Positions 1,762 to 33,400 of a stretch of DNA of 36,007 nt are shown here, in pieces. Numbering within the stretch: position 1 is the first letter of the stretch; each line of letters opens with the position of its first letter. The translations under genes were made by a program, and so were the position numbers. The notes beneath the pieces were generated by a model that was not told where the DNA came from, made no database searches, and was given only the letters and a program-made list of their open reading frames with translations. Source of the DNA: a bacterium (GTDB lineage Bacteria > SAR324 > NAC60-12); assembly GCA_965233585.1 (NCBI GenBank), contig CBDDTI010000109.1, positions 1-36,007 on the forward strand, in the 5' to 3' direction.

Positions 1762-4700
1762 ATGGTCAAAGTGTCTGATGTCAAACAAGCTCATTCCATT
1801 GAGTCAGTGGTGTCTCAATATGCTGTCATTGACAAAAATGGCATGGCTTGTTGTCCCATTCATCAAGAAAAGACAGCATCGTTCAAAGTCAATGCAGACA
1901 AAGGTACAGCTCACTGCTTTGGTTGTGGCTTTCATGGGGACGTCATCTCCTTTGTGCAAGCAGTTGAAAAACTAGACTTCAAAGAAGCCATTCAAAAACT
2001 TGGACAAGGTTTGACCCCTTCTCATCAGCCAACAACTTCAGTCAAACAACAAGCAGCTGCTCCAGAGGTTTCACAGGAGCAAAAGCAAATTATTTATGCT
2101 GTCAACAAACGAGCAAGTGACTTGTTTCATGCCTCACTGAATGCAGGAGGCAAGCAATATCTCTACGGCAGAGGTGTCAATGATGAGAGCATTGAAAACT
2201 TTCAACTTGGATACTCATCAGCTCATGCAACTGAAACCTTAAAAAAAGAATTTAGGCAAGAAGATTTAATCCAAGCAGGTTTGTTTAAGCAGACTGACAA
2301 AGGATTGAGACCTGTTTTTTATAACAGGCTGATGTTTCCCATTCAAGACGAACAGGGACGATGCTGTGGATTTGGTGGACGTTCGTTGAGAGAGAATGAC
2401 AAGGTCAAATATCTCAACACAAAGGAGACACCCATCTATAAGAAATCTCACTTACTTTATGGAGAGTCTCTTTGTCAGAATAAGGAACAGGTTGTCATCA
2501 CGGAAAGATACGTAGATGCGATTGCACTGCATCAGAAAGGATTCAATGCAGTAGCACTTTGTGGAACTGCTTTGTCTGATTCGCAAGTGGCAAGAATTGA
2601 AAGGTTTGAACAGGTTGAACTGGCTTTTGACGCAGATAATGCAGGGAGGCAAGCGACTGACAAAGCACTTGAAAAGCTCCCTCAAGCAGAGGCTTGGATT
2701 CTACCACAAGGACAAGATGCAGCAGATTTTCTCTCTCAACAAAAAGAAATCGGACAAAGCTTAGATGAACAATACAACATCACAGGGAAATATCCCAGTT
2801 TCACTCTACCCACCAAGACACTCAAAAACATGTATACCGATGGTTTCTATATGACAGAATCACGTCGCTTTAAATATAGAACAAGCCAAGCGGAACAACG
2901 AGATGCAGAACGTTTATTAAATGCTGGAATGAAGGGTCAAACACTCATCATCAAGAACATTGCTAAGAAATACGAATCTCATTCAAGACGACATGGTTCT
3001 CTCAATGTCAGACAACGTAAATCCATCTCACGTGCTGGCTTGCACTTGCATCAGATGGCAACTGCTTTCCTCATTCATCAAAAACCGATGCCGAAAAAAA
3101 TCACACAACAAGAACAATTTAACAAACTTCTTGATTCTTTACAGAAGTTGGAAGACAAAAATTGGCAACAAAGTTGGTCTCCAGCTCTCTCTCATTTTAG
3201 GAGTCCTTCTTTATCCTATCGTTCTAATGGTTCTGTCTATGGAGCATATAACCAATTTGCTTTGTCTTTAGAACGAAGAATCCAACCTTGTTCTAATGTG
3301 TATATTGGATTTGTAGAAGCCAAAAAACATGGCTGGTCTATTAAAAAAGGAGAAAAAGGGCATCAGATCATTTTTACGAATCGTTATGTTTTTGACCAAG
3401 AAAAAAGAAAACGACTACAAGAACTCAATCAAAAAGATTCTTTAAGTGAGCAAGAGTCAAAAGAGAAAAAAGACATTGAGAAAGAGGCTGTACCTTTTGC
3501 TAAAGCACAGACTGTGTTTTCACTAGACCAAACTACTGCAGCACCTGAACAAATCAAAGAAAAACTTGGTCTTGAAATCAAAGCTCCCGATCTAACAAAC
3601 CATTCTTTGATGGAGCAAAAGCGATTTGCTCATGCAGAGTCTATCTTACAAAGATACTTCAAAGAACAAGGGATTACTTTTGAGTCAACAAATTCAAATC
3701 GTGCATTCTTTAAACCTTCTGAGAAAAAAATTGTTGTTCCCAAAAAAGAGCAATTTAAAGAATTAGAAGAGTATTATTCTACTGTGTTTCACGAAGCAGG
3801 ACATTCTACTGGAGTCGCTTTGGGGAGGGAATTTGGAACTCATCAAAAAGGAAAAACTTATGCCAAAGAGGAGTTAGTTGCTGAATTGACAAGTCTCAAT
3901 CTGCAACAAGAGTATCATTTTACAAATAATGAGACTCACACCAATTCTCTGAAATATCTCAAAGGTTGGTTAGACCATGCCAAAGGAAAAGAAGACGCTC
4001 CCAAAGTTCTGTTTGAGGCGTTTAAAGAAGCAGAAAAAGCGACCGATTTGATTATGGGAAGGAATCAAGACTTACAAAAAGGTGTTGAGATTGAGCAAGA
4101 CTCTCAAAAAGAAAAACTTCCCTCCAATCTTCAACTCAAGATTGATGAGAAAGGCACTGCTCATTTGCTTGGTAGTGACAAAAGTATTTCTTTGCCACAA
4201 GAAAAACTTCCTTCAGACATTCAAAGCAAGCTCATCACAGAAGCAGTGCAGCATGGTTTTACCTATAATGACAAAGAGAATCTTTTAACTGCTCCTGAAA
4301 ATGAAACTTCTCAAAAATTCATCAAGGCTCTTGAAGAAAAAACACTTGCCACCCATCAAGAGTTAGAAATCACAAAAGAAGAAAAAATACCTGTCCAACA
4401 AGAGCAAGAGAATCTTGCTAGCAAAGTGGTTGTTGCATCAGTTGGATTTGACCAAGCACAGACTCAAAAATTTGACCAAGCTGTCAGGGAAAAGTTTGAC
4501 CTTAAAAAAGAAAAACCGACTGAAACCCAAAAAGAAGACATAGTTTCTCAAGTCATTGTTAAGGTGAGTGAAGAAGAAAAAATCAGACCAATTCAAGAAC
4601 AACCAACTGGCACAAAAAGCACTGAACAACCGAGTTTATTACCTCCTGAACAAGTGGTTTTCAAACAAAAACTAGCCTCTTGCAAGCCTGAATTTGTGCA

Positions 4701-4860
4701 ACTGCTGAACGACCATGACTTCCGTTATGATCCAAAGGAACAAGCCTTTAAAGCTCCTGCTGACAGCCCTAAAGCTCAAAAATTCTTGAAGATTGCTAAA
4801 CAAGAAGAGCAAAAAATCAAAAAGCAAACAAAGGAAAAAGAAACCTCAATGCAGATGTAG
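1762..4860 (+). CDS. DnaG-type primase (CHC2 zinc finger + TOPRIM) fused to ArdC-like ssDNA-binding and zincin metallopeptidase domains
   Basis: CPIHQEKTASF...CFGCG zinc finger; FYNRLMFPI, GFGGR, KYLN and DADNAG primase motifs; Y.AYNQ..L and IKKGEKG ArdC-N motifs; YYSTVFHEAGH and YAKEELVAEL peptidase motifs. Confidence 0.9.
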   Translation: MVKVSDVKQAHSIESVVSQYAVIDKNGMACCPIHQEKTASFKVNADKGTAHCFGCGFHGDVISFVQAVEKLDFKEAIQKLGQGLTPSHQPTTSVKQQAAAPEVSQEQKQIIYAVNKRASDLFHASLNAGGKQYLYGRGVNDESIENFQLGYSSAHATETLKKEFRQEDLIQAGLFKQTDKGLRPVFYNRLMFPIQDEQGRCCGFGGRSLRENDKVKYLNTKETPIYKKSHLLYGESLCQNKEQVVITERYVDAIALHQKGFNAVALCGTALSDSQVARIERFEQVELAFDADNAGRQATDKALEKLPQAEAWILPQGQDAADFLSQQKEIGQSLDEQYNITGKYPSFTLPTKTLKNMYTDGFYMTESRRFKYRTSQAEQRDAERLLNAGMKGQTLIIKNIAKKYESHSRRHGSLNVRQRKSISRAGLHLHQMATAFLIHQKPMPKKITQQEQFNKLLDSLQKLEDKNWQQSWSPALSHFRSPSLSYRSNGSVYGAYNQFALSLERRIQPCSNVYIGFVEAKKHGWSIKKGEKGHQIIFTNRYVFDQEKRKRLQELNQKDSLSEQESKEKKDIEKEAVPFAKAQTVFSLDQTTAAPEQIKEKLGLEIKAPDLTNHSLMEQKRFAHAESILQRYFKEQGITFESTNSNRAFFKPSEKKIVVPKKEQFKELEEYYSTVFHEAGHSTGVALGREFGTHQKGKTYAKEELVAELTSLNLQQEYHFTNNETHTNSLKYLKGWLDHAKGKEDAPKVLFEAFKEAEKATDLIMGRNQDLQKGVEIEQDSQKEKLPSNLQLKIDEKGTAHLLGSDKSISLPQEKLPSDIQSKLITEAVQHGFTYNDKENLLTAPENETSQKFIKALEEKTLATHQELEITKEEKIPVQQEQENLASKVVVASVGFDQAQTQKFDQAVREKFDLKKEKPTETQKEDIVSQVIVKVSEEEKIRPIQEQPTGTKSTEQPSLLPPEQVVFKQKLASCKPEFVQLLNDHDFRYDPKEQAFKAPADSPKAQKFLKIAKQEEQKIKKQTKEKETSMQM

Positions 4861-7324: not shown

Positions 7325-7768
7325 CTAGAAAAGCATCTCATCTAATAATTTGATATTGCCAAAGTGTTTTGCTTTTTCATAGTACCTTTTGTCTGCAGTG
7401 ATGAAGTCACATTGATTAAAAAGAGCTAAGGCATGATAGCTTGCATCATAGAAGGTAGGGAATCCTGATTTCTCTGTTCTTTCTTCACTAATTGTGAGAG
7501 CTTGACTGACTATTTCTTTTTGCAATTCAAAGACTTTGATACATGGGTTGTAATAGTAATTGTTAAGAAACTCTTCTATAAGAACTTGGCTATAACCATA
7601 TTTCTTAAAAACACCTATCACTTCATATAAAAAAAGAGAAGGAACAAGAATATAATTTTCGTCACTGATGATTTTGGCAAATAATGCCTCAACACGTTCC
7701 GAATCTTTTTCAAAAACTAAAAGTTTCACATAAACGGAGGAATCTAACACATAACTTTTATTCATCAT
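7325..7768 (-). CDS. vapC: PIN-domain toxin (VapC family)
   Basis: YVLDSSV start, P.LFLYEV, YDASYHALA and FITAD conserved PIN motifs. Confidence 0.9.
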   Translation of the reverse strand: MMNKSYVLDSSVYVKLLVFEKDSERVEALFAKIISDENYILVPSLFLYEVIGVFKKYGYSQVLIEEFLNNYYYNPCIKVFELQKEIVSQALTISEERTEKSGFPTFYDASYHALALFNQCDFITADKRYYEKAKHFGNIKLLDEMLF

Positions 7769-8057
7769 TTTTCTGCTGGATAGCGACTTGAGACTTTCTG
7801 TCAGTTATCTCCTTCCTGACTTCTCTGACTACATCTTCACTTTTCTTATTTAAAGATTGAGGTAGATTTTCCCTTTCTCTTTTGAGTGTTTTGAGACTTT
7901 GAAGAATTTTTTTTCTTTCCAATTTTTCTTGTTCTCTTTCTAATTCATTCTTAATCGCTCTGTTAACAAAATCTGTTTGCTTCCTGCTGGGAATGATGAG
8001 TTTCATCAGGTCACTAGAGTCACGATTGATATTGAATGTTTTTTTGTTAAATTCCAT
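7758..8057 (-). CDS. Putative antitoxin (RHH-like) partner of the PIN toxin
   Basis: Small upstream overlapping ORF with a TDFVNRAI helix and an SEDVVREVR tail; typical type II TA layout. Confidence 0.75.
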   Translation of the reverse strand: MEFNKKTFNINRDSSDLMKLIIPSRKQTDFVNRAIKNELEREQEKLERKKILQSLKTLKRERENLPQSLNKKSEDVVREVRKEITDRKSQVAIQQKNDE

Positions 8058-9360: not shown

Positions 9361-9945
9361 CTAATCTAGCTTGGTGACTGAATTGTATTCGGTCACTTCC
9401 AGTCTGAGTGGATTGATGACATCCACATTTTCTATTCCTAATCTTATATCGTTTTCTGGGAATTGAGTCAAGAGTTTCCACTGTATCAGTGCGACTTTCT
9501 TTTCAATGTTTTCATCAGTCTGACTAATATACTCCATTTGAATTAAGTTGTCATCTAATTTTTCAGTTGAGATGATTTTAATTTGAACAATTTGATTGGA
9601 TTGTTTGAATCGTCTCCATTTAGAGAATAAGAAAGGATTTGTGAATGCTTTGAGATTTTCTAAATCCCTTCTTTCATGGAGTAAGATGAATGTTTTAAGA
9701 TATTTCTGAATGATGAAATCATCACCAGACGTCAATCCATCTTGAACGGATTGGATTTGTTGGATGTGTTGGTTTTCGTAGAGATAGACCTTTTGTGTAT
9801 TGATTTGTCTTGATAGATAGCGATTGGATATAGATTGATAGACAATTCCAGCTAAAGCAATCAGACAAGCAGAGATGAGAATCTTGGTAATGGCTTTTTG
9901 GACTTCCCAAGTTTCAAAAGAGAGTTGAAATCTGTGAATTTTCAT
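9361..9945 (-). CDS. VirB8-like protein (paralog 2)
   Basis: Single N-terminal TM, YLKTFILLHER helix, C-terminal INPLRLEVTEY resembling the VirB8 NPLGF.V..Y motif. Confidence 0.6.
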   Translation of the reverse strand: MKIHRFQLSFETWEVQKAITKILISACLIALAGIVYQSISNRYLSRQINTQKVYLYENQHIQQIQSVQDGLTSGDDFIIQKYLKTFILLHERRDLENLKAFTNPFLFSKWRRFKQSNQIVQIKIISTEKLDDNLIQMEYISQTDENIEKKVALIQWKLLTQFPENDIRLGIENVDVINPLRLEVTEYNSVTKLD

Positions 9946-13383: not shown

Positions 13384-14514
13384 ATGCGAGTAGATACATC
13401 AGACATAGGTAAGGATGTCATCATTATTGTTGAAAAAAATGGAACACAAAAAAGATGTGGAATAACCACTTCAGGTAGAAAGTATATTGAGTATCAAGGC
13501 AATCAATACGATTTAGTTGAAAAACAAGGTCAAATTGATGAAAGGATTCCAGAAGGCAGTTTTTCAAGATGTATTTTTTTAATGGATGTAGATTTTAGTT
13601 CTGCCAATTTTACAGGAAGTGTAGATTTTAAAGAAAAACATTTTTCAGAACATGCATCTTTTAGTCATGCTACTTTTTTAGAATATGCAAATTTTAGTCA
13701 TACCACTTTTTCAGAATATGCAAATTTTAGTCATACCACTTTTGTCAAAGATGTATTCTTTAACAACGCCATTTTTTCAGAACAATCTTTTAACGAAGCC
13801 ATTTTTTCGGAACATGCATCTTTTAGAGATGTATCTTTTTTAGAACATGTATCTTTTAGAGATGCATCTTTTTCAAAACACGCAGATTTTAATTTTGCTA
13901 GCTTTTCAAAAGATGTAGATTTTGAGTTTGCCTCATGTGAAAGGGTCCTGTCTTTGAGGGAACTTCAAAAATCAGGAGTCTTGAATCTTAAATCTGCTCA
14001 AGTTGGGAAGATAGATTACTATGACACAACCATAGATCAAGCAGCCAATCGTGAAACTTTTTTGGTTCTCAAAAACCTTGCGATTGACCAACAAGATCAA
14101 GTAAAAGCTTTAGACTTTCATGTTCAGGAGATGGAGATGTATAGAAAAAGTTTAAGCTGGAAAAAGTTTGATTGGTGGCTTTTAGATTTTGAGAAGTTTA
14201 CCAGTAGTTATGGGACGAAGCCTTGGCAACCTTTGCTGTGGATTATTTTTTTTCAAGGTTTGATGCTGACTTTTATGTTTCCCCTATTTACCAATGGCGC
14301 ATTAGAATTGACAGAATATCTTTCCAGCATTTTAGGTTATAAATTTTGGTCTCATGAAAGTTTAGAACCACTTCAATTCTCTGAATATTTCCAAGAAAAT
14401 AGCCTACTCTCATTGGGGAGTTTAAAACTTATCAATAGCCTCAAGAACATTGGCACTGTAGTGCTGCTTTATGAGCTTATCAAGTCTTTTAGAAAGTTTT
14501 CAAGGAAGCTTTAA
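13384..14514 (+). CDS. Pentapeptide-repeat membrane protein
   Basis: Repeated A.F...TF units (HASFSHATF, YANFSHTTF); TSSYGTKPWQPL followed by C-terminal TM helices. Confidence 0.85.
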   Translation: MRVDTSDIGKDVIIIVEKNGTQKRCGITTSGRKYIEYQGNQYDLVEKQGQIDERIPEGSFSRCIFLMDVDFSSANFTGSVDFKEKHFSEHASFSHATFLEYANFSHTTFSEYANFSHTTFVKDVFFNNAIFSEQSFNEAIFSEHASFRDVSFLEHVSFRDASFSKHADFNFASFSKDVDFEFASCERVLSLRELQKSGVLNLKSAQVGKIDYYDTTIDQAANRETFLVLKNLAIDQQDQVKALDFHVQEMEMYRKSLSWKKFDWWLLDFEKFTSSYGTKPWQPLLWIIFFQGLMLTFMFPLFTNGALELTEYLSSILGYKFWSHESLEPLQFSEYFQENSLLSLGSLKLINSLKNIGTVVLLYELIKSFRKFSRKL

Positions 14515-14659: not shown

Positions 14660-14835
14660 TTTCCCTCCTCTCCGTTAAAGTAAATAAATATAAGTGCTAC
14701 GTGAATGATAACACCAGCCGCTAGCAAGCACCATGCTTCTAGTGCATATGTTGTTTTTTCTGATGCAATGTAGTTGATTGCACCTCCTATCAGCCCTCCA
14801 CTGAGTCCAATCTCTACCAGTAATAAATTTTTCAT
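14656..14835 (-). CDS. Small membrane protein A, cassette copy 3 (59 aa)
   Basis: MKNLLLVEIGLSGGLIGGAINYIASEKTTYALEAWCLLAAGVIIHVALIFIYFNGEEGK; clear paralog of 21585-21773. Confidence 0.75.
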   Translation of the reverse strand: MKNLLLVEIGLSGGLIGGAINYIASEKTTYALEAWCLLAAGVIIHVALIFIYFNGEEGK

Positions 14836-14935: not shown

Positions 14936-15334
14936 ATGCCAATCGCCATCAATACACTAGAATATGCTCGCTTACTGATAGATTCAGGAGTAGAACAAAA
15001 GCAAGCAGAAGCTCATGCTCTGACACTGGACAAAACGCTTAAAGAACATGTTCCCAGTAAAGAAGACGTTCAAAGCACCATAGAACAAGCTCAAACCCAA
15101 CTTAAAAGAAAAATCCAAACCGATATTGATAGCTCTATTGACACTGCAAAGATTGAAATCAATTCAACTATTGAAAAAGTCAAAAGTGAACTCAAACAAG
15201 ACATATCAGAGTTAAAAAGTGAACTCAAACAAGACATATCAGAGTTAAAATCCGACAATAAATTGATGAAATGGATGCTGGGGTTTCAGTTTGCAATGAT
15301 TTTAGCAATTTTTGTAAAACTTTTTGTTGGTTAG
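14936..15334 (+). CDS. DUF1640/CCDC90-like coiled-coil protein with C-terminal TM
   Basis: NTLEYARLL..GV..KQAEA start; 33-bp tandem repeat (KSELKQDISEL x2); KWMLG TM tail. Confidence 0.8.
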   Translation: MPIAINTLEYARLLIDSGVEQKQAEAHALTLDKTLKEHVPSKEDVQSTIEQAQTQLKRKIQTDIDSSIDTAKIEINSTIEKVKSELKQDISELKSELKQDISELKSDNKLMKWMLGFQFAMILAIFVKLFVG

Positions 15335-15595: not shown

Positions 15596-17380
15596 TTAAA
15601 CAGAGATATTGGGTTCAATGTCTTTGTTGTCTTTCTTGGGTAAATTTGTTTTGACTTCAGGAGTTTTGGGGACAGGATTGCCCACTTCAAAATCTTTCTG
15701 GTCTTGTTGGAATGATGGCATGTTGTCGTAAAGATCAAGAGGCGGTCTCTCATCATTTTGAGCAAAGGAAGGCATGTTGTCATAAAGATCAAGGGGCGGT
15801 CTCTCATCATTTTGAGCAAAAGAAGGCATGTTGTCATAAAGATCAAGAGGAGGTAAATCCATCGGAGGCCTGTCTGATGCCTTCTCTTTTTGAAGTTGTT
15901 GATTGGTCTCTTTTTCATTGGTTTTCTGCTTGGATTGTTGAGCAAAGTTTTGAGAACGTTCATGCGTCTTTTGAGGAACAGACTCAGATTGAGCAGAAAA
16001 AGAAGGAAAAGCAGGCATGTTTGATGGAGCTTGTGGCGTCTGCTGTGATGCACTTTTTTTCTCTTTCATATCTGATGAAGTGTGAGAAGAGTGAGATGCT
16101 TCCTGTGTCTGCTGTTGCTGTGAAGCAGTAGAAGATTGAGAACTTTGAACAGTTTCAGAGGAGGCAAGAGTGCCTTCAATGATTCTATCTGCACCAGTCG
16201 CACCAGAACCTGATTGAGAAGATGACCCTTGAGTTTGGGGGTTGTCATCAGGCATCTTTTGTACAGAAAAAGGAGGCGGTTCAGGTTGTCCAAGATTCCT
16301 GTATTCTTCAACAGGAATATGAGGCAGGAACACAGGCGGTGCAGGGAGCTGAGGAACATCACCAGCACCAGATGACTCTCCCCCACCATCTGAACGCATT
16401 CCTCCTAGCATTTCTTTAGCACTGCTGATGCCTGCTTTTCCTGCACCATAAGCAGCCTTGCCAGCCCTCGCTGCACTGGCAGCAGCAGAAATGCCTTTGG
16501 CAGTCGCACCAATGATGTCTCTCCCAATCTGAAATGGATTGCTTCCCTTGCTAGAGACATTGCCCCGAGTCAAAGAATTAGCAATCTCTGCCACCTTAGA
16601 AAACGAAAAACAAGCAATCAATCCAATTAAAATAATAATCCCTGAAGGAATAGGAGAAGAGGAGTTTTCAAGACTTTGGTAGTCCAAAGCCAACCTAAAA
16701 ATCAACTCATTGACAAGATAAATAATACAGGTCGCAATGACTGGATACAACATAACAGTCAGCACAGCACGAAACCATTCAAAAAACACATTCCTACTCT
16801 CTGAAAAGGCAGAGAGCATAATGACCGCAGGAGAAAACAGCATATAAATCACTACATTAGACAAAAAAGCAAACTGCACCAGCCAATACTGTAAGTAAGT
16901 GATATACACCACCAAAGCAGCAAGATAGATGATGAACGCATCATAAGTTGGCAAGACTGACATCCAGCGGTCATCATTGCCTGCTTGTTCTATCAGATTG
17001 TCATAAATCATACTGTACAGCTGGCTCATGTTAGTCTCTGACGGAATTTTGAGACCCAAATTGTTGGCATTGGCAGAAATAATAAATTCAGCAATTTCTT
17101 TGGGGGTGTCAAACACCAGAGCAATCAAATACTCTTCATAAGACTCCATATTCGTTATGAAGTTAAAATTCATAGAAAGCAGGAGACCTGTGAACATGGT
17201 TTTGTAGCCGACTGTGCCGATTCCCGTTTTAAACGCAAAGACAAAGTAAAACAGAATCGCCAAGTGAAACCCTGCCGAAAAAATAGGCTGTGCTGCATGA
17301 CCAAACACCGAATACAAACCCAAAATCACCTCTATAAGAGTTGTCTCAAAAATCTCATAAACTTCATTTCCTCTAAACAT
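15596..17380 (-). CDS. virB6: VirB6/TrbL family protein with long low-complexity C-tail
   Basis: Multiple TMs; SPAVIMLSAFSESRNVFFEW TrbL/VirB6 motif; Ala/Gly-rich then Ser/Gln-rich tail. Confidence 0.85.
   Translation of the reverse strand: MFRGNEVYEIFETTLIEVILGLYSVFGHAAQPIFSAGFHLAILFYFVFAFKTGIGTVGYKTMFTGLLLSMNFNFITNMESYEEYLIALVFDTPKEIAEFIISANANNLGLKIPSETNMSQLYSMIYDNLIEQAGNDDRWMSVLPTYDAFIIYLAALVVYITYLQYWLVQFAFLSNVVIYMLFSPAVIMLSAFSESRNVFFEWFRAVLTVMLYPVIATCIIYLVNELIFRLALDYQSLENSSSPIPSGIIILIGLIACFSFSKVAEIANSLTRGNVSSKGSNPFQIGRDIIGATAKGISAAASAARAGKAAYGAGKAGISSAKEMLGGMRSDGGGESSGAGDVPQLPAPPVFLPHIPVEEYRNLGQPEPPPFSVQKMPDDNPQTQGSSSQSGSGATGADRIIEGTLASSETVQSSQSSTASQQQQTQEASHSSHTSSDMKEKKSASQQTPQAPSNMPAFPSFSAQSESVPQKTHERSQNFAQQSKQKTNEKETNQQLQKEKASDRPPMDLPPLDLYDNMPSFAQNDERPPLDLYDNMPSFAQNDERPPLDLYDNMPSFQQDQKDFEVGNPVPKTPEVKTNLPKKDNKDIEPNISV
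15709..15853 (-). repeat. 54-bp tandem repeat in the virB6 tail (about 2.7 copies)
   Basis: PPLDLYDNMPSFAQNDER unit; GGCATGTTGTC at 15717, 15771 and 15825. Confidence 0.9.
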
Positions 17381-17417
17381 TTTTTTTACTTTTGTGACAA
17401 AGATTAATCAAACAGTT

Positions 17418-17453
17418 ATCTACAACAGTAGAAATTAAGTCAGTCTATCAGAC
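17418..17453 (-). CRISPR. Solitary type V-A CRISPR repeat upstream of virB6
   Basis: ATCTACAACAGTAGAAATTAAGTCAGTCTATCAGAC is 33/36 identical to the array repeat; the AATTTCTACTGTTGTAGAT handle is intact. Confidence 0.92.
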
Positions 17454-17500
17454 TTGATTTTTGATAACGAAAGTAGTAATTTGATAGAAATTTAGAAACG

Positions 17501-17674
17501 ATGAAAAACATCTTGTTACAACAAATGAACGCCTGCCTTGCAGGCATTGGTGGCTGTCTGGCTTATTTTGCAAGTGAAAAAACAAAGTACATAGACCAAG
17601 CAGTTTATCTCACACTCGGATTTGCCATTGCTTATCTAGTTATATTTTTAATCTACACAAAAGAAGACTCATGA
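17501..17674 (+). CDS. Small membrane protein A, cassette copy 4 (57 aa)
   Basis: MKNILLQQMNACLAGIGGCLAYFASEKTKYIDQAVYLTLGFAIAYLVIFLIYTKEDS; shares the SEKTKY motif. Confidence 0.75.
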   Translation: MKNILLQQMNACLAGIGGCLAYFASEKTKYIDQAVYLTLGFAIAYLVIFLIYTKEDS

Positions 17675-17781
17675 CAGGAGAAACCGCCATCTACGTTGCT
17701 TCAGGCATCTTTTTTATGAGTGTTTTGATTACCATCATCAAAACACTCAAACAACAAAAACGAAACAAAACAACTACTTAA
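17671..17781 (+). CDS. Small single-TM protein B, cassette copy 4 (36 aa)
   Basis: MTGETAIYVASGIFFMSVLITIIKTLKQQKRNKTTT; ATGA overlap with A. Confidence 0.65.
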   Translation: MTGETAIYVASGIFFMSVLITIIKTLKQQKRNKTTT

Positions 17782-18850
17782 ACAAGGGACCTGAGTCATA
17801 TCTCTTGTAGTATTTGCTTTGTCTGACTTTTTCCAACAAAGCATCAAAGTTAGGAGTCGCAGACTGATGTTGGTCAGCACTTTTACCCTTTGCTCGCAAG
17901 TCACGGATTTGCTGTTCAGTCAGGGACAGCTTCGCCGCACGTTGCAGTTGCCGCACGTTTCGTTTCTGCTTAGCGTGCAAGTTGATGCCGTTCAAATAAA
18001 TCCCCTCCAGATTTTTGTCAATCCTGTGCAAGATTTTAAGCATTTGCCACTGAAGCATCATCTGTGTATCTAATGTTCCTTTTGTTCCCTCAGTACTCGG
18101 GTCATTTCCAGACACCCGATCAGCTAGAATCTCCCACTCTTTGTCTTTGAGTTTTTTATAGTCTTCGTCCAGATTTTTCATGTATCTTGAATTGATGCGA
18201 TTAAACTCACCTCGCTCCCTCTTGAGCTTGTCCATTGCTTCGTCATAGTAGGTCTTGACTAAAGCACACTTGCCTTTGACAAGCATGCCCAGCTGGTTAG
18301 TGCCTGCTTTGCGATGCACACGTTTTTTCAAGTAAAGCCCTCCCTCGGGATCCACCTCTAACGTGGTATAGGTAGATTCCCTAGAGTCTACGTCATTGTT
18401 AAATCCAAGCTCTTTTGCTATCAGCCCCTCCCCTATCTTTTCAGGATCCTTGCCGTAGAAGTAACGTGCATTCCACATGTTTTCAGTTTTCTGATAAGCA
18501 TCTACATCAGAAAAAACACACTCTGAGTCTTTTTTGAACTGCTCAATCGCAGCCTGAAACTCCCCCGGAGTTTTTTCTAGCTCATCCTTGAGTTGCTTAA
18601 TTTCCCCCATCACCCCAAAAACAGAGTTGTAGACTTTTGCCATTTCGCTCCTCATGTTCATAATCTCGTCCTGTACATTCATCATGGTCATCACTGCTCT
18701 TCTGCTAGTTTTCACTTGCTCCCTCAAATTCGCAACAGATTTAACCGCCTGCTCAAAATTTGAGGGATCGAAGACGTATTGAACACCCTGACCGTAAACT
18801 ACTGAAGGAATGACAGCGACCAAAAAAATATATTTAATTTTCATTAACAT
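17774..18850 (-). CDS. virB5: VirB5/TrbJ-like minor pilin
   Basis: Signal peptide then VFDPSNFEQAV, helical coiled coil, located upstream of virB6. Confidence 0.7.
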   Translation of the reverse strand: MLMKIKYIFLVAVIPSVVYGQGVQYVFDPSNFEQAVKSVANLREQVKTSRRAVMTMMNVQDEIMNMRSEMAKVYNSVFGVMGEIKQLKDELEKTPGEFQAAIEQFKKDSECVFSDVDAYQKTENMWNARYFYGKDPEKIGEGLIAKELGFNNDVDSRESTYTTLEVDPEGGLYLKKRVHRKAGTNQLGMLVKGKCALVKTYYDEAMDKLKRERGEFNRINSRYMKNLDEDYKKLKDKEWEILADRVSGNDPSTEGTKGTLDTQMMLQWQMLKILHRIDKNLEGIYLNGINLHAKQKRNVRQLQRAAKLSLTEQQIRDLRAKGKSADQHQSATPNFDALLEKVRQSKYYKRYDSGPLFK

Positions 18851-19214
18851 ACAAATCTCCTTTTGAATTTAATTGATTTGAACTTAATCCACCACTAGGA
18901 CTAACTTCTCTATAATTAGCAATTCCATCTGCGCCAACAGAACAGGCTTTTTCTTTTGCTTCTTTCATGGCTTCTTCTACTGGTTTATTACTACAACCAC
19001 AGAAAATCCCTGCTTGCAACTGCTGAAAAATAGTCACCTCCCCTATTTTTTTCTGTCCCTCTTGCAGAGGTTCACGCGAAATGGGAATGTCACAGGTTTT
19101 AGGCTTTGGTTGGTAGTTTTCATCAGTCATCTGGCTGTACAGAGCTGGCTGGGAACACCCCGCCATCAGGGCGGTTGCACAAGTGGCAGTGATGATTGAT
19201 TTGATTGTTTTCAT
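18834..19214 (-). CDS. Small lipoprotein next to virB5 (candidate entry/surface exclusion protein)
   Basis: Lipobox MAGC; KIGEVT...KEKACSVGADGI resembles the YbjQ/RcsF-like fold. The exclusion role is inferred only from position. Confidence 0.7.
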   Translation of the reverse strand: MKTIKSIITATCATALMAGCSQPALYSQMTDENYQPKPKTCDIPISREPLQEGQKKIGEVTIFQQLQAGIFCGCSNKPVEEAMKEAKEKACSVGADGIANYREVSPSGGLSSNQLNSKGDLYVNEN

Positions 19215-19269
19215 AAAATTCCCTTGTAAAAAAAATAATTAAAAAAAGTAAAGAGTTATTTCTTATTAT

Positions 19270-19802
19270 ATCTACAACAGTAGAAATTAAATAAGTCTAT
19301 TAGACCTCTTGCAGAGGTTCACGGGAGACGGATCTACAACAGTAGAAATTAAATAAGTCTATTAGACAGCAAAATATAGAGTAAATGTCTGGTATCTACA
19401 ACAGTAGAAATTAAATAAGTCTATTAGACCAGCTCTTTATTCTAAGATGACAGATATCTACAACAGTAGAAATTAAATAAGTCTATTAGACCATTCCACA
19501 TGTTCTCTGTTTTCTGAATCTACAACAGTAGAAATTAAATAAGTCTATTAGACGAGTTGCTTAATCTCTCCCATGACACATCTACAACAGTAGAAATTAA
19601 ATAAGTCTATTAGACAATTTTACGGCTAAGCCTCTTGGCTGATCTACAACAGTAGAAATTAAATAAGTCTATTAGACACATGTTTTCAGTTTTCTGATAC
19701 GCATATCTACAACAGTAGAAATTAAATAAGTCTATTAGACTGACATTCCTGTCTCTCGTGAACCCTATCTACAACAGTAGAAATTAAATAAGTCTATTAG
19801 AC
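19270..19802 (-). CRISPR. Type V-A (Cas12a-type) CRISPR array 1: 9 repeats, 8 spacers of 26-27 nt
   Basis: Identical 36-bp repeats, minus strand GTCTAATAGACTTATTTAATTTCTACTGTTGTAGAT, at 19270, 19332, 19394, 19456, 19518, 19580, 19642, 19705 and 19767. The 3' 19 nt is the canonical Cas12a handle. Confidence 0.98.
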
Positions 19803-19945
19803 CGATAACACGCTTGCAACCCGCACATCTTGGTCAAAAAACAAAATCAAAAGTGTAAATTTTGAGCAATTTCTGCCATTAAGACTCAGGTTTGCAATTT
19901 TTTAAGAAAGAAACGATCCATCAGCGGTATAGCTTCATCCTCATC
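19803..19945 (-). promoter_or_regulatory. CRISPR leader-containing segment, copy 1 (143 bp)
   Basis: Identical to 20294-20436; lies 5' of the array in the crRNA orientation. Confidence 0.8.
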
Positions 19946-20293
19946 ATCTACAACAGTAGAAGTTAAATAAGTCTATTAGACATTATCATCAGTAGTGGGT
20001 CTATACTTCGATCTACAACAGTAGAAATTAAATAAGTCTATTAGACCCAGTACCAGAAGATGACCCTTGAGATCTACAACAGTAGAAATTAAATAAGTCT
20101 ATTAGACGAAAGAAATGATCAAGCTATCCAGTGATCTACAACAGTAGAAATTAAATAAGTCTATTAGACATTAAAGCGTTTTATGTTAGATTCATATCTA
20201 CAACAGTAGAAATTAAATAAGTCTATTAGACGATTTTGATTTTCATAATTTTCCTTGATCTACAACAGTAGAAATTAAATAAGTCTATTAGAC
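19946..20293 (-). CRISPR. Type V-A CRISPR array 2: 6 repeats, 5 spacers of 25-29 nt
   Basis: Repeats at 19946 (one A>G change), 20011, 20072, 20134, 20196 and 20258. Confidence 0.97.
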
Positions 20294-20461
20294 CGATAAC
20301 ACGCTTGCAACCCGCACATCTTGGTCAAAAAACAAAATCAAAAGTGTAAATTTTGAGCAATTTCTGCCATTAAGACTCAGGTTTGCAATTTTTTAAGAAA
20401 GAAACGATCCATCAGCGGTATAGCTTCATCCTCATCATCTACAACAGTAGAAGTTAAATAA
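20294..20461 (-). promoter_or_regulatory. Leader copy 2 plus truncated 25-bp variant repeat (20437-20461)
   Basis: Exact duplicate of 19803-19970; ATCTACAACAGTAGAAGTTAAATAA, then similarity stops. Confidence 0.85.
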
Positions 20462-20500
20462 AAATTTTGTTTCATTTCATAGGCAATTTTTGGTCAGAGG

Positions 20501-21478
20501 TTAAAGGTTTTGAATTTGTTGTTTGGGTAGTCCAGTGGCAATGCTGATGGTATCAATGTCTAATCCTTGAGCCAGCATCTTTTTGGCAATTTCAATAGCT
20601 TTTTGTTGTTCTCCTTCTTGCCGTCCTTTTTCTATGCCTTTTTCCATTCCTTTTTCCATTCCTTGCTGGAGACCTTCTTCTTTGCCTTCTTGCCGTCCTT
20701 TTTCCATTCCTTTTTCCATTCCTTTCTCCATTCCTTTTTGAAGACCTTTTTGGAATCCCTGTTTAAGTTGGAGTTGTTCAGCACCTTTGATGATGGCAAC
20801 AAACTCCTGCCTTTTGTAGATGACTTCTAGTTCTTCAGGAGACAGCCCTGCTTGATTGACCAGATGTAAGGCTTCTTGAATGGTTGGATTAAAAGTTTGG
20901 GGAATCTCTTGTAAGCCTTCAGCGTGCTTGATGCAATAAATCCACTCTTCTTGCAACTCTTTGAGTTCATCTAAAGACTTTTGAAACTTGGGGAGTTCTA
21001 CAAAGATCAATTCAATGTCATCAGAATACGGGCTTAAGTTCTTCTTCTCTAACAATTTGAAAACATTGATGATTTGGTCATTGTTTTCAAACATGATGAA
21101 GTCAAGGATATTGAGAGCAATGACAGGATTCAGCAGATGAAACTCCTGCCCTTTCTCTAGTTGCATAGAGTAGTTTTTACAAGCATTGTAAAGGATTCTT
21201 TTCTCAAAACCTTCATGGTTGATGACCTGCATCTCAATCAGGACTTGCTGACCTGTGTCTAGTTTCGCTTTGACATCAACAAAGGTGATTTTCATACCTT
21301 CTAGCAAAGGCGGGTTGTAAGGGTCTTGAATGGTCAGGTCTTGAATTTTCTGCTGATGAGGAAACTCAATGAGCGAGTTAAGAAAGCTGATGAGTAGCTT
21401 CTTATTCTTCTCATCTCCAAACAGCATCTTAAAAGCATAGTCTGTTTTAAGGTCTAAAAACTTCATCATTTTTGGCAA
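20501..21478 (-). CDS. Rpn family PD-(D/E)XK nuclease (PDDEXK_2)
   Basis: DLKTDYAFKMLFG, VDVKA, IEMQ, FVELPKF; C-terminal (EKGM)n repeats and IAKKML..GL..DTISIATGL. Confidence 0.92.
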   Translation of the reverse strand: MPKMMKFLDLKTDYAFKMLFGDEKNKKLLISFLNSLIEFPHQQKIQDLTIQDPYNPPLLEGMKITFVDVKAKLDTGQQVLIEMQVINHEGFEKRILYNACKNYSMQLEKGQEFHLLNPVIALNILDFIMFENNDQIINVFKLLEKKNLSPYSDDIELIFVELPKFQKSLDELKELQEEWIYCIKHAEGLQEIPQTFNPTIQEALHLVNQAGLSPEELEVIYKRQEFVAIIKGAEQLQLKQGFQKGLQKGMEKGMEKGMEKGRQEGKEEGLQQGMEKGMEKGIEKGRQEGEQQKAIEIAKKMLAQGLDIDTISIATGLPKQQIQNL

Positions 21479-30450: not shown

Positions 30451-33400
30451 ATGGAGAACACCATGAAAAAACTCACGTCCTGCCTCGTACTCATCTTTTA
30501 TGGATTCACGATGGTCGCAGAAACCTTACAAATCACACTGACCCAAGAGACTTTTTTGAAAGACAAGGAGCAAGCACTAGGAGATGTGTTGTTCCAGCAG
30601 AAGACGTTGTCGTTTAGTGGAACACTTGCTGTGGAGCAGTTGAACGGGACACAGCGGATTAAAATCAACTGGACAAAAGTCAATGGCAAGTCCGCTCCCA
30701 GTGAATTTTTGTCTCAATTTAAGACTCAAAGCCAAGAATTACCCAGAGGGTTCAAGTTCAATATCACAGGAGACTTTGAATCGCTCAATGATCCCAGTCT
30801 AGCAGTGGCAGTCGTAGATGAAGTGGAAGATTCAGGTGTTTCAGATTCATCTGTTCCCTCTGCTTCAAATTCTGCTCCAAAAGAAAGTCAGGGATTAACA
30901 GACTCTGCTGACAATCCTGATGCTGCAACTGCAACCTCTCCTGTTTCCATTCCAAATCAACAGGACATGACTCAAAATCAAGGCACTCAAAGCACTCCAG
31001 AAAGGTCTTTCCAAAAAGAAAAACAAGAAGAAAAGAATGATGATGATGAAAAAGATACTCCTGAACAACAAGAAGAAAAAAGAAATGATGCAACAGCAAT
31101 AGACACGTTGACAGAGACAACTCATGAAACTTGTGATGCTCAAATCACTGATGTTGCTTACATCACAAGGAAGCAAAAAGTGTTGTCCTATTCTTCAGGC
31201 AAGAAGGTCAGACAAGAGTGCCAGAATGACAGAACCTTTGCTTTGCTGGAAACTTTTCAAGGGTGCAGTCCCAGACATGACTTTCAGAACAAACGAACCA
31301 TCATGCAGAAGAAAAAATACTATGTCTCTGATGCAGGCTCACGAGTGGACATTGTCAACTGTACAGACTCCAAAATCATCTATCCTCATTTACAAGCTGT
31401 GTTTGACTGCACTCCTGTCTTTGATGCAGGTCAGCAGAGAGCCTACACCACCAAAAAAACCTACTATGTGGACGGCACTGGTTCTATTCAGACCATTACA
31501 GACTGTCGCATGGCTTCTGATGACTTTCAGACCTTCACTCAAAATGATTATCTCATAGAGTATTCTGATAAAGACCGAATAGACCATGCTAACAAAGTGG
31601 TCTATCGCAGAATGAGGCATTACATCAAAGTCGGAGACCAGAAGAAAGTGATTGGTTCGTGGCAAGATGACACTGCTAAACCGATGCCGATTGTCAGGGA
31701 ATATGACAAATGTAGTTACTTTCACAACAAACAAGCCCAGAAGTCATACAGGCAATATGCAGATGTCTATTACAAGAACGGACAAAGGCAAGTGGTCATT
31801 GCTTGTCAAAAAGACCCAAACAACTACTTTGCTCACATCTCTGATTCCAAATACTGTGACCCAATGGTCAACAATCGCAAAATGGTGTTGCGGAAGTCTG
31901 TCTATTTCTTTGACCAAAACGGACAGAGAAAGAACGTAGAAGATTGCAAAGTCTCTTCTGTGGAACACGATTTGACTCCTGCAGACATTCAAAAAGACTT
32001 CTCAGTTTGTAAGGCTCATTTGGATTTTGCTGCCAAACGTGCCTATCCCAAATATAGAGAATTTGTCCAAATCAAAGAAAGCAAGACCTACATCTCTAAC
32101 TGCCAAAAAGACAGCAACTTCTTTGACATGGTAGAGACTGATCAAGGATGTTCTCCTCGTTTTGATTTCAATCAAATGCAAGCCATCATCAAAAAAAGAC
32201 TCAAATACAATGATAGCCAGAAGGATGTCTTTGTCTCTGCTTGCTTGGAGACTTTTAGGCGGTATGTTCTCAAAAATGATGCTGCCATGTGCCGTGATCG
32301 GCTTTCTGAAGACAAGATGAGCATCATCAAGTTTCAAGCTGTGGTTTACACCGATGACAAAGGAGTTAAAAAAATTGCTCAAACTTGTCAATCTACTCAT
32401 CACTCCACTCCCATTGATCCCAAGAAATTGGTCAAAAAATACACCTGTGCAGACCTCTATGATGTCCCCAACATGAAGGTTTACAGACAATACAAAAACT
32501 ATTTAAATCTAGGAGGAAAAGAAGAAGAAATTAGCAGTTGTCTGGTAGATAAGAGCCAGTTTTATCCCATTGAGAGAGATTTTGCTGATTGTAAGAATGA
32601 TTACAACACCTTCACGATGAAAGCCATCTTAAAAAACAAACTGTTTTACAACACAGGCATTGAGAAAAGATACATCAGTGCTTGCTTGACCTCCAATATA
32701 CAATATGACCTCCAAAAGACCACTGGAACTTGTCCACCCAAGTTGTCCCTCAATAATTCTATGTTGGTCGCTCAACAAGAAATCTATTACATTGACCCCA
32801 ATACCAAGAAACGAGTGGTTGTTTTGCACTGTCACGAAACTGATCAACTCACAGCGATTCCAGATTCTATGATCATAAAAAAATATGCAGAATGTCCTGT
32901 CTTTTGGAATCCAAAAACTTTGAAAGTGGTCAAACAATACAGGAAGTATGTCAAGTTAGATGGACAGACTGAAACCAAGATTTCTGATTGTGTCTTTGAC
33001 CCTGCCAAAACCTACAACTCTCAATGGGATTACTCCAAATGCTCTGTGAGAGTGGACACAGTAGCAGGAAAAGTCAGAGAACTTGCCAAAGCCTATTATA
33101 ATGACGGGGCGCAGGATCATTATGTCTCTGATTGTGTAGAGACTGGAACGTTGTATGCGATCAAAGACAATCACAACATTTGCCAACCCATCAAACTGGC
33201 TAATCCGACCAAAGTCATCTTGCAGAAAAGACTTTATTACAATGACCGTTTAGGAATTGTCACGTGGCTTGGACAATGTGAGCCTTCTTTGACAGTAGAT
33301 TCAGGAAAAGAAAAGTTATGTGCATCGTCTCCTATCAACTACAATGACAATGTCAACCAAGCGTTTTTAAACACGAAATGGATCTATCAGCACGGTGCCA

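Follow-up and report, generated by a model that had tools for sequence, protein, structure and literature searches.

Contig CBDDTI010000109.1 (hereafter C109; the window is this whole stretch of 36,007 nucleotides, nt) is a closed 36-kb conjugative plasmid from a bacterium of the SAR324 lineage. It carries two CRISPR arrays of type V-A without recognisable cas genes. Seven of the 13 spacers resemble alleles of the genes of the type IV secretion system (T4SS) next to the arrays. Sequence comparison lets us strongly infer that at least 7 of the 13 were taken from the lipoprotein, VirB5-family and VirB6 genes of several diverged sibling plasmids. The source assembly (12 Mb, 747 contigs) also contains an intact chromosomal type V-A system with the same repeat. 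Based on these sequence features, it seems probable that C109 excludes its kin by using host Cas12a in trans and that the host adaptation genes add spacers to its arrays.

Cas-less arrays and the origin of their spacers

The two arrays on C109, P1 and P2, comprise 15 full repeats of 36 nt at a spacing of 61-65 nt and 13 unique spacers of 25-29 nt (Table 1). Both were re-derived at the positions given in the first-pass annotation of this DNA. Fourteen of the 15 repeats are one 36-mer, the exception being the leader-distal repeat of P2 (19946-19981) with an A>G change. Both modules are joined by a 204-nt exact duplication (19767-19970 = 20258-20461). The reverse complement of the repeat has the 3' end AATTTCTACTGTTGTAGAT, which folds into a 3' hairpin, and the UCUAC-UGUU-GUAGA hairpin is present in the minimum-energy fold of three repeat variants. 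The 3' handle of the repeat (...AAUUUCUACUGUUGUAGAU) is presumably the Francisella handle. Hence, regular 36-nt repeats, unique spacers and a 3' handle hairpin are all found, as in type V-A arrays. No Rfam family was matched within 17000-20700. Because the hairpin lies at the 3' end of the reverse complement, CRISPR RNAs (crRNAs) would come from the - strand, which the arrays share with the PD-(D/E)XK, lipoprotein, VirB5-family and VirB6 genes. Read in this direction, each 143-nt unit next to an array lies upstream of it and is leader-like. Spacer S8 adjoins the P1 leader and is thus the newest of P1, with S1 being the oldest. An additional lone repeat (17418-17453), absent from the earlier annotation, is located 37 nt upstream of the virB6 ATG on the same strand, and small + strand open reading frames (ORFs) begin at 17504. 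The lone repeat could be the remainder of an array, a solitary repeat unit like those named Racr, or a site at which Cas12a processes the 5' untranslated region of virB6.

All 13 spacers were re-derived by coordinates and compared ungapped with array-masked C109 on both strands. We refer to a stretch of C109 that near-matches one of its spacers as an own-allele site. In a control of 300 shuffled spacers, 299 reached a best match of 15-20 and one reached 22. Near-matches were found for S1, S3, S4, S5, S7, S8 and S10, exactly with the figures and coordinates reported in the first-pass annotation. No spacer among the 13 matches C109 perfectly, as also stated there. S3 is not significant at the DNA level alone, as 31 of 300 shuffles reach 19. 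Read in the gene frame, S3 encodes ALYSKMTD against the plasmid's own ALYSQMTD (a 7/8 peptide match), and six of the seven differences are synonymous, including a complete AGC-to-TCT serine switch. For six spacers, the in-frame peptides agree with C109 at 7/8 or 8/8 residues. A further match proposed between S13 and the start of the lipoprotein gene was dropped as within chance (gapped score 13 versus 11-16 in 40 shuffles), so that seven of the eight proposed matches stand. Peptide-level matches of S6, S11, S12 and S13 (6/8) are noise, being equalled by 28 of 100 shuffles. S2, S6, S9, S11, S12 and S13 gave no credible match in C109, the rest of the assembly, PLSDB or INPHARED.

The mismatches of the seven near-matching spacers point to foreign alleles of the same genes. 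Among 28 mismatches, 19 are at codon position 3 (p=2e-4), and all 28 lead to only five amino-acid changes. The overlapping spacers S1 and S8 both encode Val where C109 has Ile45 (I45V) and use different codons for the neighboring Pro, Ser and Pro. Likewise overlapping, S4 and S7 are distinct from each other at three positions. Hence, each of these two sites was sampled from at least two foreign alleles. The sole homologue of the lipoprotein found among 5.8 billion proteins (P0002, 67% identity) carries ALYSKMTD and DIPVSREPLK, which are the Lys28 and Val45 states predicted by S3, S1 and S8. P0002 also has Lys after Leu and, with a TTR Leu codon, this would place TTTA in front of the S8 protospacer. 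The spacer alleles are thus natural states of this plasmid family, with P0002 itself far too diverged to be the source. The nearest relatives of the VirB5-family protein in public data show 72% identity over a 152-aa (amino acid) fragment and 53%, and the nearest VirB4 relative shows 64%. The origin of spacers in related plasmids, as previously suggested, gains from the third-position bias, the differing overlapping alleles and the enrichment of TTV flanks described below.

Spacers might alternatively derive from the plasmid's own DNA beside the array, with mismatches arising by escape or drift. All seven sites indeed fall within 16209-19147, which is 2.9 kb beside the arrays (p ~3e-6), and six of the seven are inside the 1.8 kb between the lone repeat and P1. 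A hotspot of acquisition next to the CRISPR array is known for the type I-E system of E. coli (described in passages of PMC10011333). However, escape needs a single change in the seed or the protospacer-adjacent motif (PAM), and here 1 to 7 changes per spacer are found, mostly synonymous and at third positions. An origin in own DNA also sits poorly with two different foreign alleles at two sites (S1 versus S8, S4 versus S7) and with predicted amino-acid states existing in the natural relative P0002. Furthermore, divergence does not rise with spacer age in P1 (newest S8 6/26, S7 1/27, oldest S1 3/26), which speaks against both drift and escape. We consider an origin in the plasmid's own DNA very unlikely.

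The sampled alleles might also record past evasion by siblings. Two bases upstream of the S4 protospacer, C109 itself has T and the allele sampled by S7 has G (CTTA versus CGTA, respectively). S7, the newer of these overlapping spacers, therefore came from a variant lacking the PAM of the older S4. In sequence terms, this would look like escape followed by re-acquisition.

The host type V-A system and the flanks of target sites

No cas gene was found on C109 by Pfam over 30 of the 70 ORFs of at least 70 aa (long and non-nested) or by NCBIfam among eight C109 ORFs without a Pfam family. A six-frame search of the whole assembly with TIGR04330 matched contig C745 only and nothing on C109. The absence of cas genes claimed in the first-pass annotation is hence borne out by all three approaches. 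A 1280-aa ORF between virB10 and virB11 (30451-34293, +) has no Pfam or NCBIfam family and no similarity to the host Cas12a.

The assembly contains 264 copies of the repeat handle, located on C109 and on the 620-kb contig C745. A handle match on contig C269 was discarded as a chance partial match. C745 encodes an intact cas12a-cas4-cas1-cas2 operon with each gene above curated cut-offs. The cas12a gene (C745:406982-411616) is uninterrupted, encodes 1544 aa and scores 776.7 bits to TIGR04330. The cas4 gene is of the V-type (TIGR04328), cas1 matches TIGR04329 and cas2 is also present. The gene dxr beside the operon indicates that C745 is chromosomal. Compared with solved Cas12a structures, the host protein reaches E values of 1e-182 to 1e-196 (PDB 5NG6/5MGA among the matches), and the alignment contains a stretch ...IGIDRGE... 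that we take to be the RuvC-I motif. Judging from intact ORFs only, the host system is probably active. With 1544 aa compared to a family model of 1288 positions, its Cas12a is of unusual length, and the alignment to the model falls into three separate stretches, pointing to insertions in the N-terminal half.

C745 carries three arrays (H1, H2 and H3) with 46, 67 and 128 spacers, adding up to 241 spacers and 244 repeats. A host type V-A locus with the same repeat, as sought by the first-pass annotation, is hence present, with 240 of the 244 repeats being identical over 36 nt to the C109 consensus. Spacer lengths on C109 also match those of the host. The 143-nt leader of C109 shows 89.8% identity over 127 nt to C745 87667-87793 and 404725-404851, upstream of H1 and H3, so that plasmid-host leader homology spans ~130 nt. 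A degenerate repeat remnant lies upstream of the host leaders, and its C109 counterpart is the truncated repeat at 20437-20461. Among 88 genomes of the class, the 19-nt handle is found in the source genome only. With the handle so restricted and the exact repeat having no match in metagenome_contigs and genome_contigs, the C109 arrays belong to the system of this host lineage. No C109 spacer is shared with the 241 host spacers (best ungapped match 17/26). The plasmid arrays are thus not copied host content, and their spacers must postdate the capture of the module.

Three further observations concern the host arrays. Three H3 spacers, at C745:401605-401693 and 403478-403504, match host contigs perfectly (25/25 on C746 at 814425, 28/28 on C745 at 258859 and 27/27 on C747 at 994729), and the target flanks AGAA, AAGG and TAAG are not PAMs. 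These may be tolerated self-targets or integrated elements that escaped through the PAM. In addition, 24 host spacer sequences occur twice (e.g., H1 90029/90342 and H2 394721/395096), indicating internal block duplications. H2 and H3 are ~0.9 kb apart without a leader copy in between and look like one array split by an insertion.

A chromosomal array could conceivably have been joined to the plasmid contig during assembly via the shared repeat. Short-read contigs do break at repeats, and one run contig of 3923 nt stops 27 nt into the first repeat. However, the chromosomal arrays contain none of the 13 spacers, and their leaders differ by ~10% from those of C109. Both junctions between flank and repeat are found in contigs of four sequencing runs (from one study, which may include the source sample), with the junction of the truncated repeat and right flank seen as a loose end in the run contigs. 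In addition, the contig closes as a circle, as claimed before: the ends share a 13-nt overlap, and after its removal the topoisomerase ORF remains open across the junction, with 649 residues and a single terminal stop. We give hardly any weight to an assembly artefact.

Flanks of the own-allele sites were defined as the four bases 5' of the site in crRNA sense. Of the seven own-allele sites, four have a TTV flank (6.9% expected from the background, p=7e-4), and none has one on the opposite side. Adding four host spacers near-matching C109 raises the count to 6 of 11 against the same 6.9% background (p=4e-5), all sites being imperfect homologues. Type V-A adaptation is described as selecting T-rich PAMs in a Cas4-dependent manner in passages of PMC9419969. 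The TTV enrichment fits such a selection.

Flanks and mismatches together could also explain how the resident plasmid avoids being cut. Relative to the own alleles, mismatches fall at PAM-proximal positions 3, 5 and 8 in S1, at position 4 and positions 12-16 in S3, at positions 10 and 13 in S4, and at positions 2, 5, 11 and 14 in S5. Mismatches of this kind may suffice to prevent self-cutting by Cas12a. The own alleles of S7 and S10 are nearly identical to the spacers PAM-proximally, but their flank is not a PAM. A single synonymous change from GTA to GTT would turn the flank of the S7 site into TTG. Partly matching crRNAs might instead direct Cas12a to non-cutting binding at the T4SS genes of C109 and thereby tune conjugation. 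The 17 contiguous PAM-proximal identities of S10 followed by mismatches resemble binding-only guides, and crRNA-like regulators are known in type V-A loci (described in part of 10.1101/2024.10.29.618823). Yet the best candidates, S7 and S10, lack the PAM that Cas12a needs for DNA binding, and where a PAM is present the seed has mismatches (S1, S5). The guides are also of mixed strand orientation relative to the mRNA. Such self-regulation is extremely unlikely in our assessment.

The host arrays hold traces of the same plasmid family. Four of the 241 host spacers have at most five mismatches to C109, compared to 0 of 241 shuffled controls. Their targets are spread round C109, and the spacers are leader-distant, at H3 places 94 to 109 of 128. 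The two closest near-matches have no PAM in the resident C109. Based on these two cases, C109 may be an escape variant living beside an active system.

The arrays might be passive passengers, i.e. a captured type V-A module that still serves as a host integration site without selected benefit, with spacers recording abundant DNA. Orphan arrays on plasmids are common and often interpreted as decaying remnants (as covered by passages of PMC9071438). On C109, one repeat is truncated and one is stranded alone, and the module appears to be an insertion judging from the contiguous virB4, VirB5 homologue and virB6 in a distant relative (G074). On the other hand, 7 of the 13 C109 spacers (54%) are kin-derived near-matches compared to 4 of 241 (1.7%) in the host arrays (Fisher p=4e-8). 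The anti-plasmid spacers of the host are old, so that no common pool was sampled. Furthermore, 14 of 15 repeats and both leaders are intact, and the arrays lie on the T4SS strand between the PD-(D/E)XK and lipoprotein genes. We consider a mere passenger rather unlikely.

The arrays and the lone repeat might also act as an anti-CRISPR decoy against the anti-plasmid spacers of the host, either as Racr or as cas-silencing Cracr. RacrVA1-3, solitary type V-A repeats of mobile elements, are described as inhibiting MbCas12a (passages of PMC10651486), and crRNA-like RNAs of mobile elements, including type V-A, can be array-like (part of 10.1101/2024.10.29.618823). The host does hold the four spacers near-matching C109, and the lone repeat (17418-17453) fits the sequence criterion of a solitary repeat unit. 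However, none of the 13 spacers and three pseudo-spacers has a PAM-flanked, PAM-proximal match of at least 9 nt in C745:404700-413500. The only two 9-nt matches are both in coding sequence, with flanks CTGC and ACAA. A decoy needs neither real leaders nor diverse kin-derived spacers, and 13 extra guides would barely dilute 241 host guides unless strongly over-expressed. A decoy function therefore has a very low likelihood.

Proposed exclusion of sibling plasmids

We suggest the following mechanism for the probable exclusion of kin. C109 would contribute two captured leader-plus-array modules of type V-A, with everything else coming from the host cas12a-cas4-cas1-cas2 operon. Host Cas1, Cas2 and Cas4 would insert new spacers at the leader-proximal repeats of C109. 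The arrays would be transcribed from the - strand, the same as the T4SS genes, and host Cas12a would process the array transcript. Host Cas12a would then cut incoming siblings carrying a matching protospacer and a TTV/TTTV PAM. The resident C109 would be spared through at least two mismatches within the first 14 PAM-proximal positions (S1, S3, S4 and S5) or the lack of a PAM (S7, S8 and S10). Close relatives competing for the same host would in this way be kept out in an updatable and sequence-specific manner. The kin exclusion put forward in the first-pass annotation gains from the host locus, the sibling alleles and the TTV flanks, and it falls short in that no perfect protospacer was found.

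Several points weigh against kin exclusion. First of all, no perfect protospacer was found in any collection searched (own assembly, PLSDB, INPHARED, contig collections and genomes of the order), the nearest protein relatives are 53-72% identical, and 6 of the 13 spacers have no identified target. Three of the seven own-allele sites (S7, S8 and S10) have no PAM. S4 is the least safe spacer for the resident plasmid, with two mid-spacer mismatches beside a CTTA flank, and its sparing is argued from general knowledge of mismatch tolerance in Cas12a. On the - strand of the leaders, no sigma-70-like promoter was detected by a simple scan, and no run holding the stretch is on record as RNA. The plausible link between plasmid and chromosome is drawn from co-assembly, the shared repeat and leader, and the near-matching host spacers rather than from physical evidence. 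Finally, the clustering of the targeted sites in 2.9 kb is not explained by the exclusion model itself. The clustering does not stem from missing homology elsewhere, as the near-matching host spacers strike other parts of the backbone. Priming was not seen in type V-A systems according to passages of PMC9419969. As a speculation by analogy with the E. coli case, an array-side hotspot in siblings of the same layout could explain the clustering.

Source plasmids were sought in several collections, and the perfect TTV-flanked matches in homologous plasmids expected by the first-pass annotation did not appear. Using the DNA of 17381-19269 against 64 genomes of the order, the genes were matched in the source genome only, and three other genomes of the order showed weak DNA matches (E ~4e-4 to 8e-4). 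Back-translated peptides of the VirB5-family protein, including YQKTENMW at the S4/S7 site in every synonymous spelling, gave 86 pattern matches in metagenome_contigs, 32 in genome_contigs and 2 in viral_contigs, none of which was confirmed. PLSDB gave no match by DNA or by protein. Whole arrays produced only chance-level matches in PLSDB and INPHARED (E 0.03 or higher), and the exact 36-nt repeat had 0 matches in metagenome_contigs and genome_contigs. Among the 88 genomes of the phylum, the best relative of the VirB5-family protein is 36% identical (G074). The four sequencing runs holding the stretch come from two samples, with the 3923-nt piece being identical to 15596-19268, and the run contigs contain no variant allele at a likeness of 80% or more.

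Host-type repeats could also serve the conjugation operon as working elements, in addition to immunity. The lipoprotein-virB5 genes are preceded, 55 nt upstream, by a perfect repeat, and this repeat and the lone repeat bracket a 1.8-kb segment. If the repeats are operon parts, Cas12a would cut the long transcript at the repeats and stay on the 5' ends of the T4SS mRNA, coupling the expression of mating genes to the CRISPR status of the host. The variable cassette bracketed by repeats could also be swapped among siblings by repeat recombination, and the arrays would record an allele-level arms race. We regard repeats acting as operon parts and cassette borders as quite unlikely.

Known systems and neighboring plasmid genes

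Cas-less arrays are known from other mobile elements. A survey of PLSDB counted 207 orphan arrays on plasmids, with their function unknown and host Cas suggested to act in trans (passages of PMC9071438). In the same passages, plasmid spacers mostly target plasmids, with conjugative plasmids being over-represented. The term 'V-A' is absent from the main text of that survey. C109 shares with these orphan arrays the cas-less location on a plasmid, the plasmid targets and the proposed use of host Cas. In contrast to the orphan arrays as covered there, the host system, leader and repeat of C109 are found in the same assembly, and the spacers are traceable to sibling alleles.

The closest parallel in function might be viral mini-arrays. 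Passages of PMC11656645 describe viral mini-arrays with host-identical repeats that target related viruses, validated in archaeal viruses. The mini-arrays of Sulfolobales viruses resemble C109 in being carried by an element without cas genes, in having host-identical repeats and in carrying spacers against the carrier's kin, and the proposed function of kin exclusion via the host effector is shared. In comparison to the 1-2 spacers of the mini-arrays described there, C109 is a conjugative plasmid with 13 spacers and intact leaders, using a class 2 system of type V-A. The targets on C109 are also alleles of the carrier's own T4SS genes. Type IV-A3 plasmids, as described in the same passages, borrow host adaptation genes and share with C109 the inter-plasmid conflict, host adaptation in trans and conjugative targets. 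These type IV plasmids bring an effector and borrow adaptation, whereas C109 brings arrays only and would borrow both.

Racr and Cracr elements share with C109 host-like type V-A repeats on a mobile element, and the lone repeat of C109 resembles a solitary unit in sequence (compare passages of PMC10651486). C109 differs by having arrays with leaders and diverse, genuine spacers. No C109 guide matches the promoter region of the host cas genes, unlike the Cracr guides described in part of 10.1101/2024.10.29.618823. A canonical type V-A locus (FnCas12a type) has the same 36-nt repeat length, 25-29-nt spacers and TTV-type flanks. On C109, the arrays stand alone, and the cas genes are on another replicon.

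In the literature, we found no Cas12a-type, cas-less plasmid array directed against the carrier's kin, with the limit that the supplements of PMC9071438, unexamined here, may list type V-A orphans. Parts of the first-pass annotation's idea were already in print, namely orphan plasmid arrays possibly using host Cas in trans and viral mini-arrays against kin. What appears new is that a conjugative plasmid would use arrays in the manner of viral mini-arrays, but as full arrays with leaders, a class 2 nuclease and targets at the level of alleles. The use of host Cas by cas-less arrays is shown only in archaeal viruses as far as passages of PMC11656645 go, with no search having been made for demonstrations in plasmids. 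C109 provides a clean natural case, with leader-bearing arrays, a host Cas12a and adaptation operon, and readable spacers in one assembly. The readout of spacer alleles suggests that self and kin are discriminated at a few synonymous bases. If kin exclusion is true, the plasmid would exclude rivals adaptively and heritably while spending almost no coding capacity on it. An array of ~1.2 kb and one nuclease gene would then be a test bed for how a system avoids self while attacking near-identical rivals.

Table 1. Arrays, genes and own-allele sites on C109, and host spacers near-matching C109. Flanks are 5' of the site in crRNA sense.
Feature	Position on C109	Strand	Match	Flank	Description
Array P1	19270..19802	-			9 identical 36-nt type V-A repeats, 8 spacers (S1-S8)
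Leader copy 1	19803..19945	-			143 nt, homologous to both host array leaders
Array P2	19946..20293	-			6 repeats, 5 spacers (S9-S13)
Leader copy 2	20294..20436	-			143 nt
Truncated repeat	20437..20461	-			25 nt of the 3' part with the A>G change; lies upstream of leader copy 2
Lone repeat	17418..17453	-			3 changes in 5' part, last 20 nt identical
VirB6/TrbL gene	15596..17380	-			By Pfam; own-allele site of S10
VirB5/TrbJ-family gene	17774..18850	-			358 aa; own-allele sites of S4, S7, S5
Lipoprotein gene	18834..19214	-			Lipobox ALMAGC; own-allele sites of S1, S8, S3
PD-(D/E)XK transposase-like gene	20501..21478	-			PF12784 (9.3e-49); directly upstream of array block
Own-allele site of S1	19059-19084		23/26	ATTC	Lipoprotein gene
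Own-allele site of S3	19122-19147		19/26	TTTC	Lipoprotein gene
Own-allele site of S8	19067-19092		20/26	TGCA	Lipoprotein gene
Own-allele site of S4	18469-18494		24/26	CTTA	VirB5-family gene
Own-allele site of S5	18590-18615		22/26	TTTG	VirB5-family gene
Own-allele site of S7	18475-18501		26/27	GTAG	VirB5-family gene
Own-allele site of S10	16209-16233		20/25	CAAA	VirB6 gene; 17 contiguous PAM-proximal identities, then divergence
Host spacer H3_397914			2 mismatches	CATC	virB4
Host spacer H2_394220			3 mismatches	ATTC	ORF 9361-9945
Host spacer H3_398852			3 mismatches, all after position 21	TGAT	Topoisomerase
Host spacer H3_398100	14761-14786		5 mismatches	TTTC	

The conjugative backbone of C109 comprises, by Pfam, a topoisomerase, VirD4, a relaxase, VirB3, VirB4, VirB6, VirB8, VirB9, VirB10 and VirB11. 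Other Pfam families include a primase-ArdC fusion, a VapBC-like pair and ParA. The name virB5 used in the first-pass annotation is supported through homologues and gene order, and not through the 358-aa protein itself, which has no Pfam match. In an alignment of 16 sequences (the protein as query and 15 homologues), PF07996 is matched by five (best E 1.4e-10), and the 36%-identical homologue in G074 is placed between virB4 and virB6. An Atlas search with the protein gave a weak VirB5 lead only. A structure model from the 16-row alignment was too poor for use (mean predicted local distance difference test score, pLDDT, 51.5; predicted template modelling score, pTM, 0.27).

The T4SS genes of G074 are ordered virB2, virB4, VirB5 homologue, virB6, virB8, virB9 and virB10, with an unassigned 107-aa ORF where virB3 would be expected. 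Over the 19.5 kb examined in this distant relative, tandem repeats were not found. The contiguous genes and the lack of tandem repeats there indicate that the C109 array block is an insertion into the T4SS operon. The PD-(D/E)XK gene possibly helped to capture the array module. This gene lies 40 nt from the truncated CRISPR repeat, its C-terminal part is made of 12-nt (4-aa) repeats, and the 3' end of the gene shows 81% identity to a stretch of the chromosomal contig C746.

C109 encodes further genes for conflict or maintenance. The primase at 1762-4860 carries fused ArdC-like anti-restriction and zincin peptidase domains, and the VapBC-like PIN toxin-antitoxin pair is located at 7325-8057. 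Tandem repeats are found at several places on C109. An exact 33-nt x2 repeat lies at 15182-15250, and a 54-nt x2.6 repeat at 15717-15854 is near the virB6 3' end. A 33-nt tandem repeat with ~7.7 copies (13641-13891) lies in a pentapeptide-repeat ORF (13384-14514).

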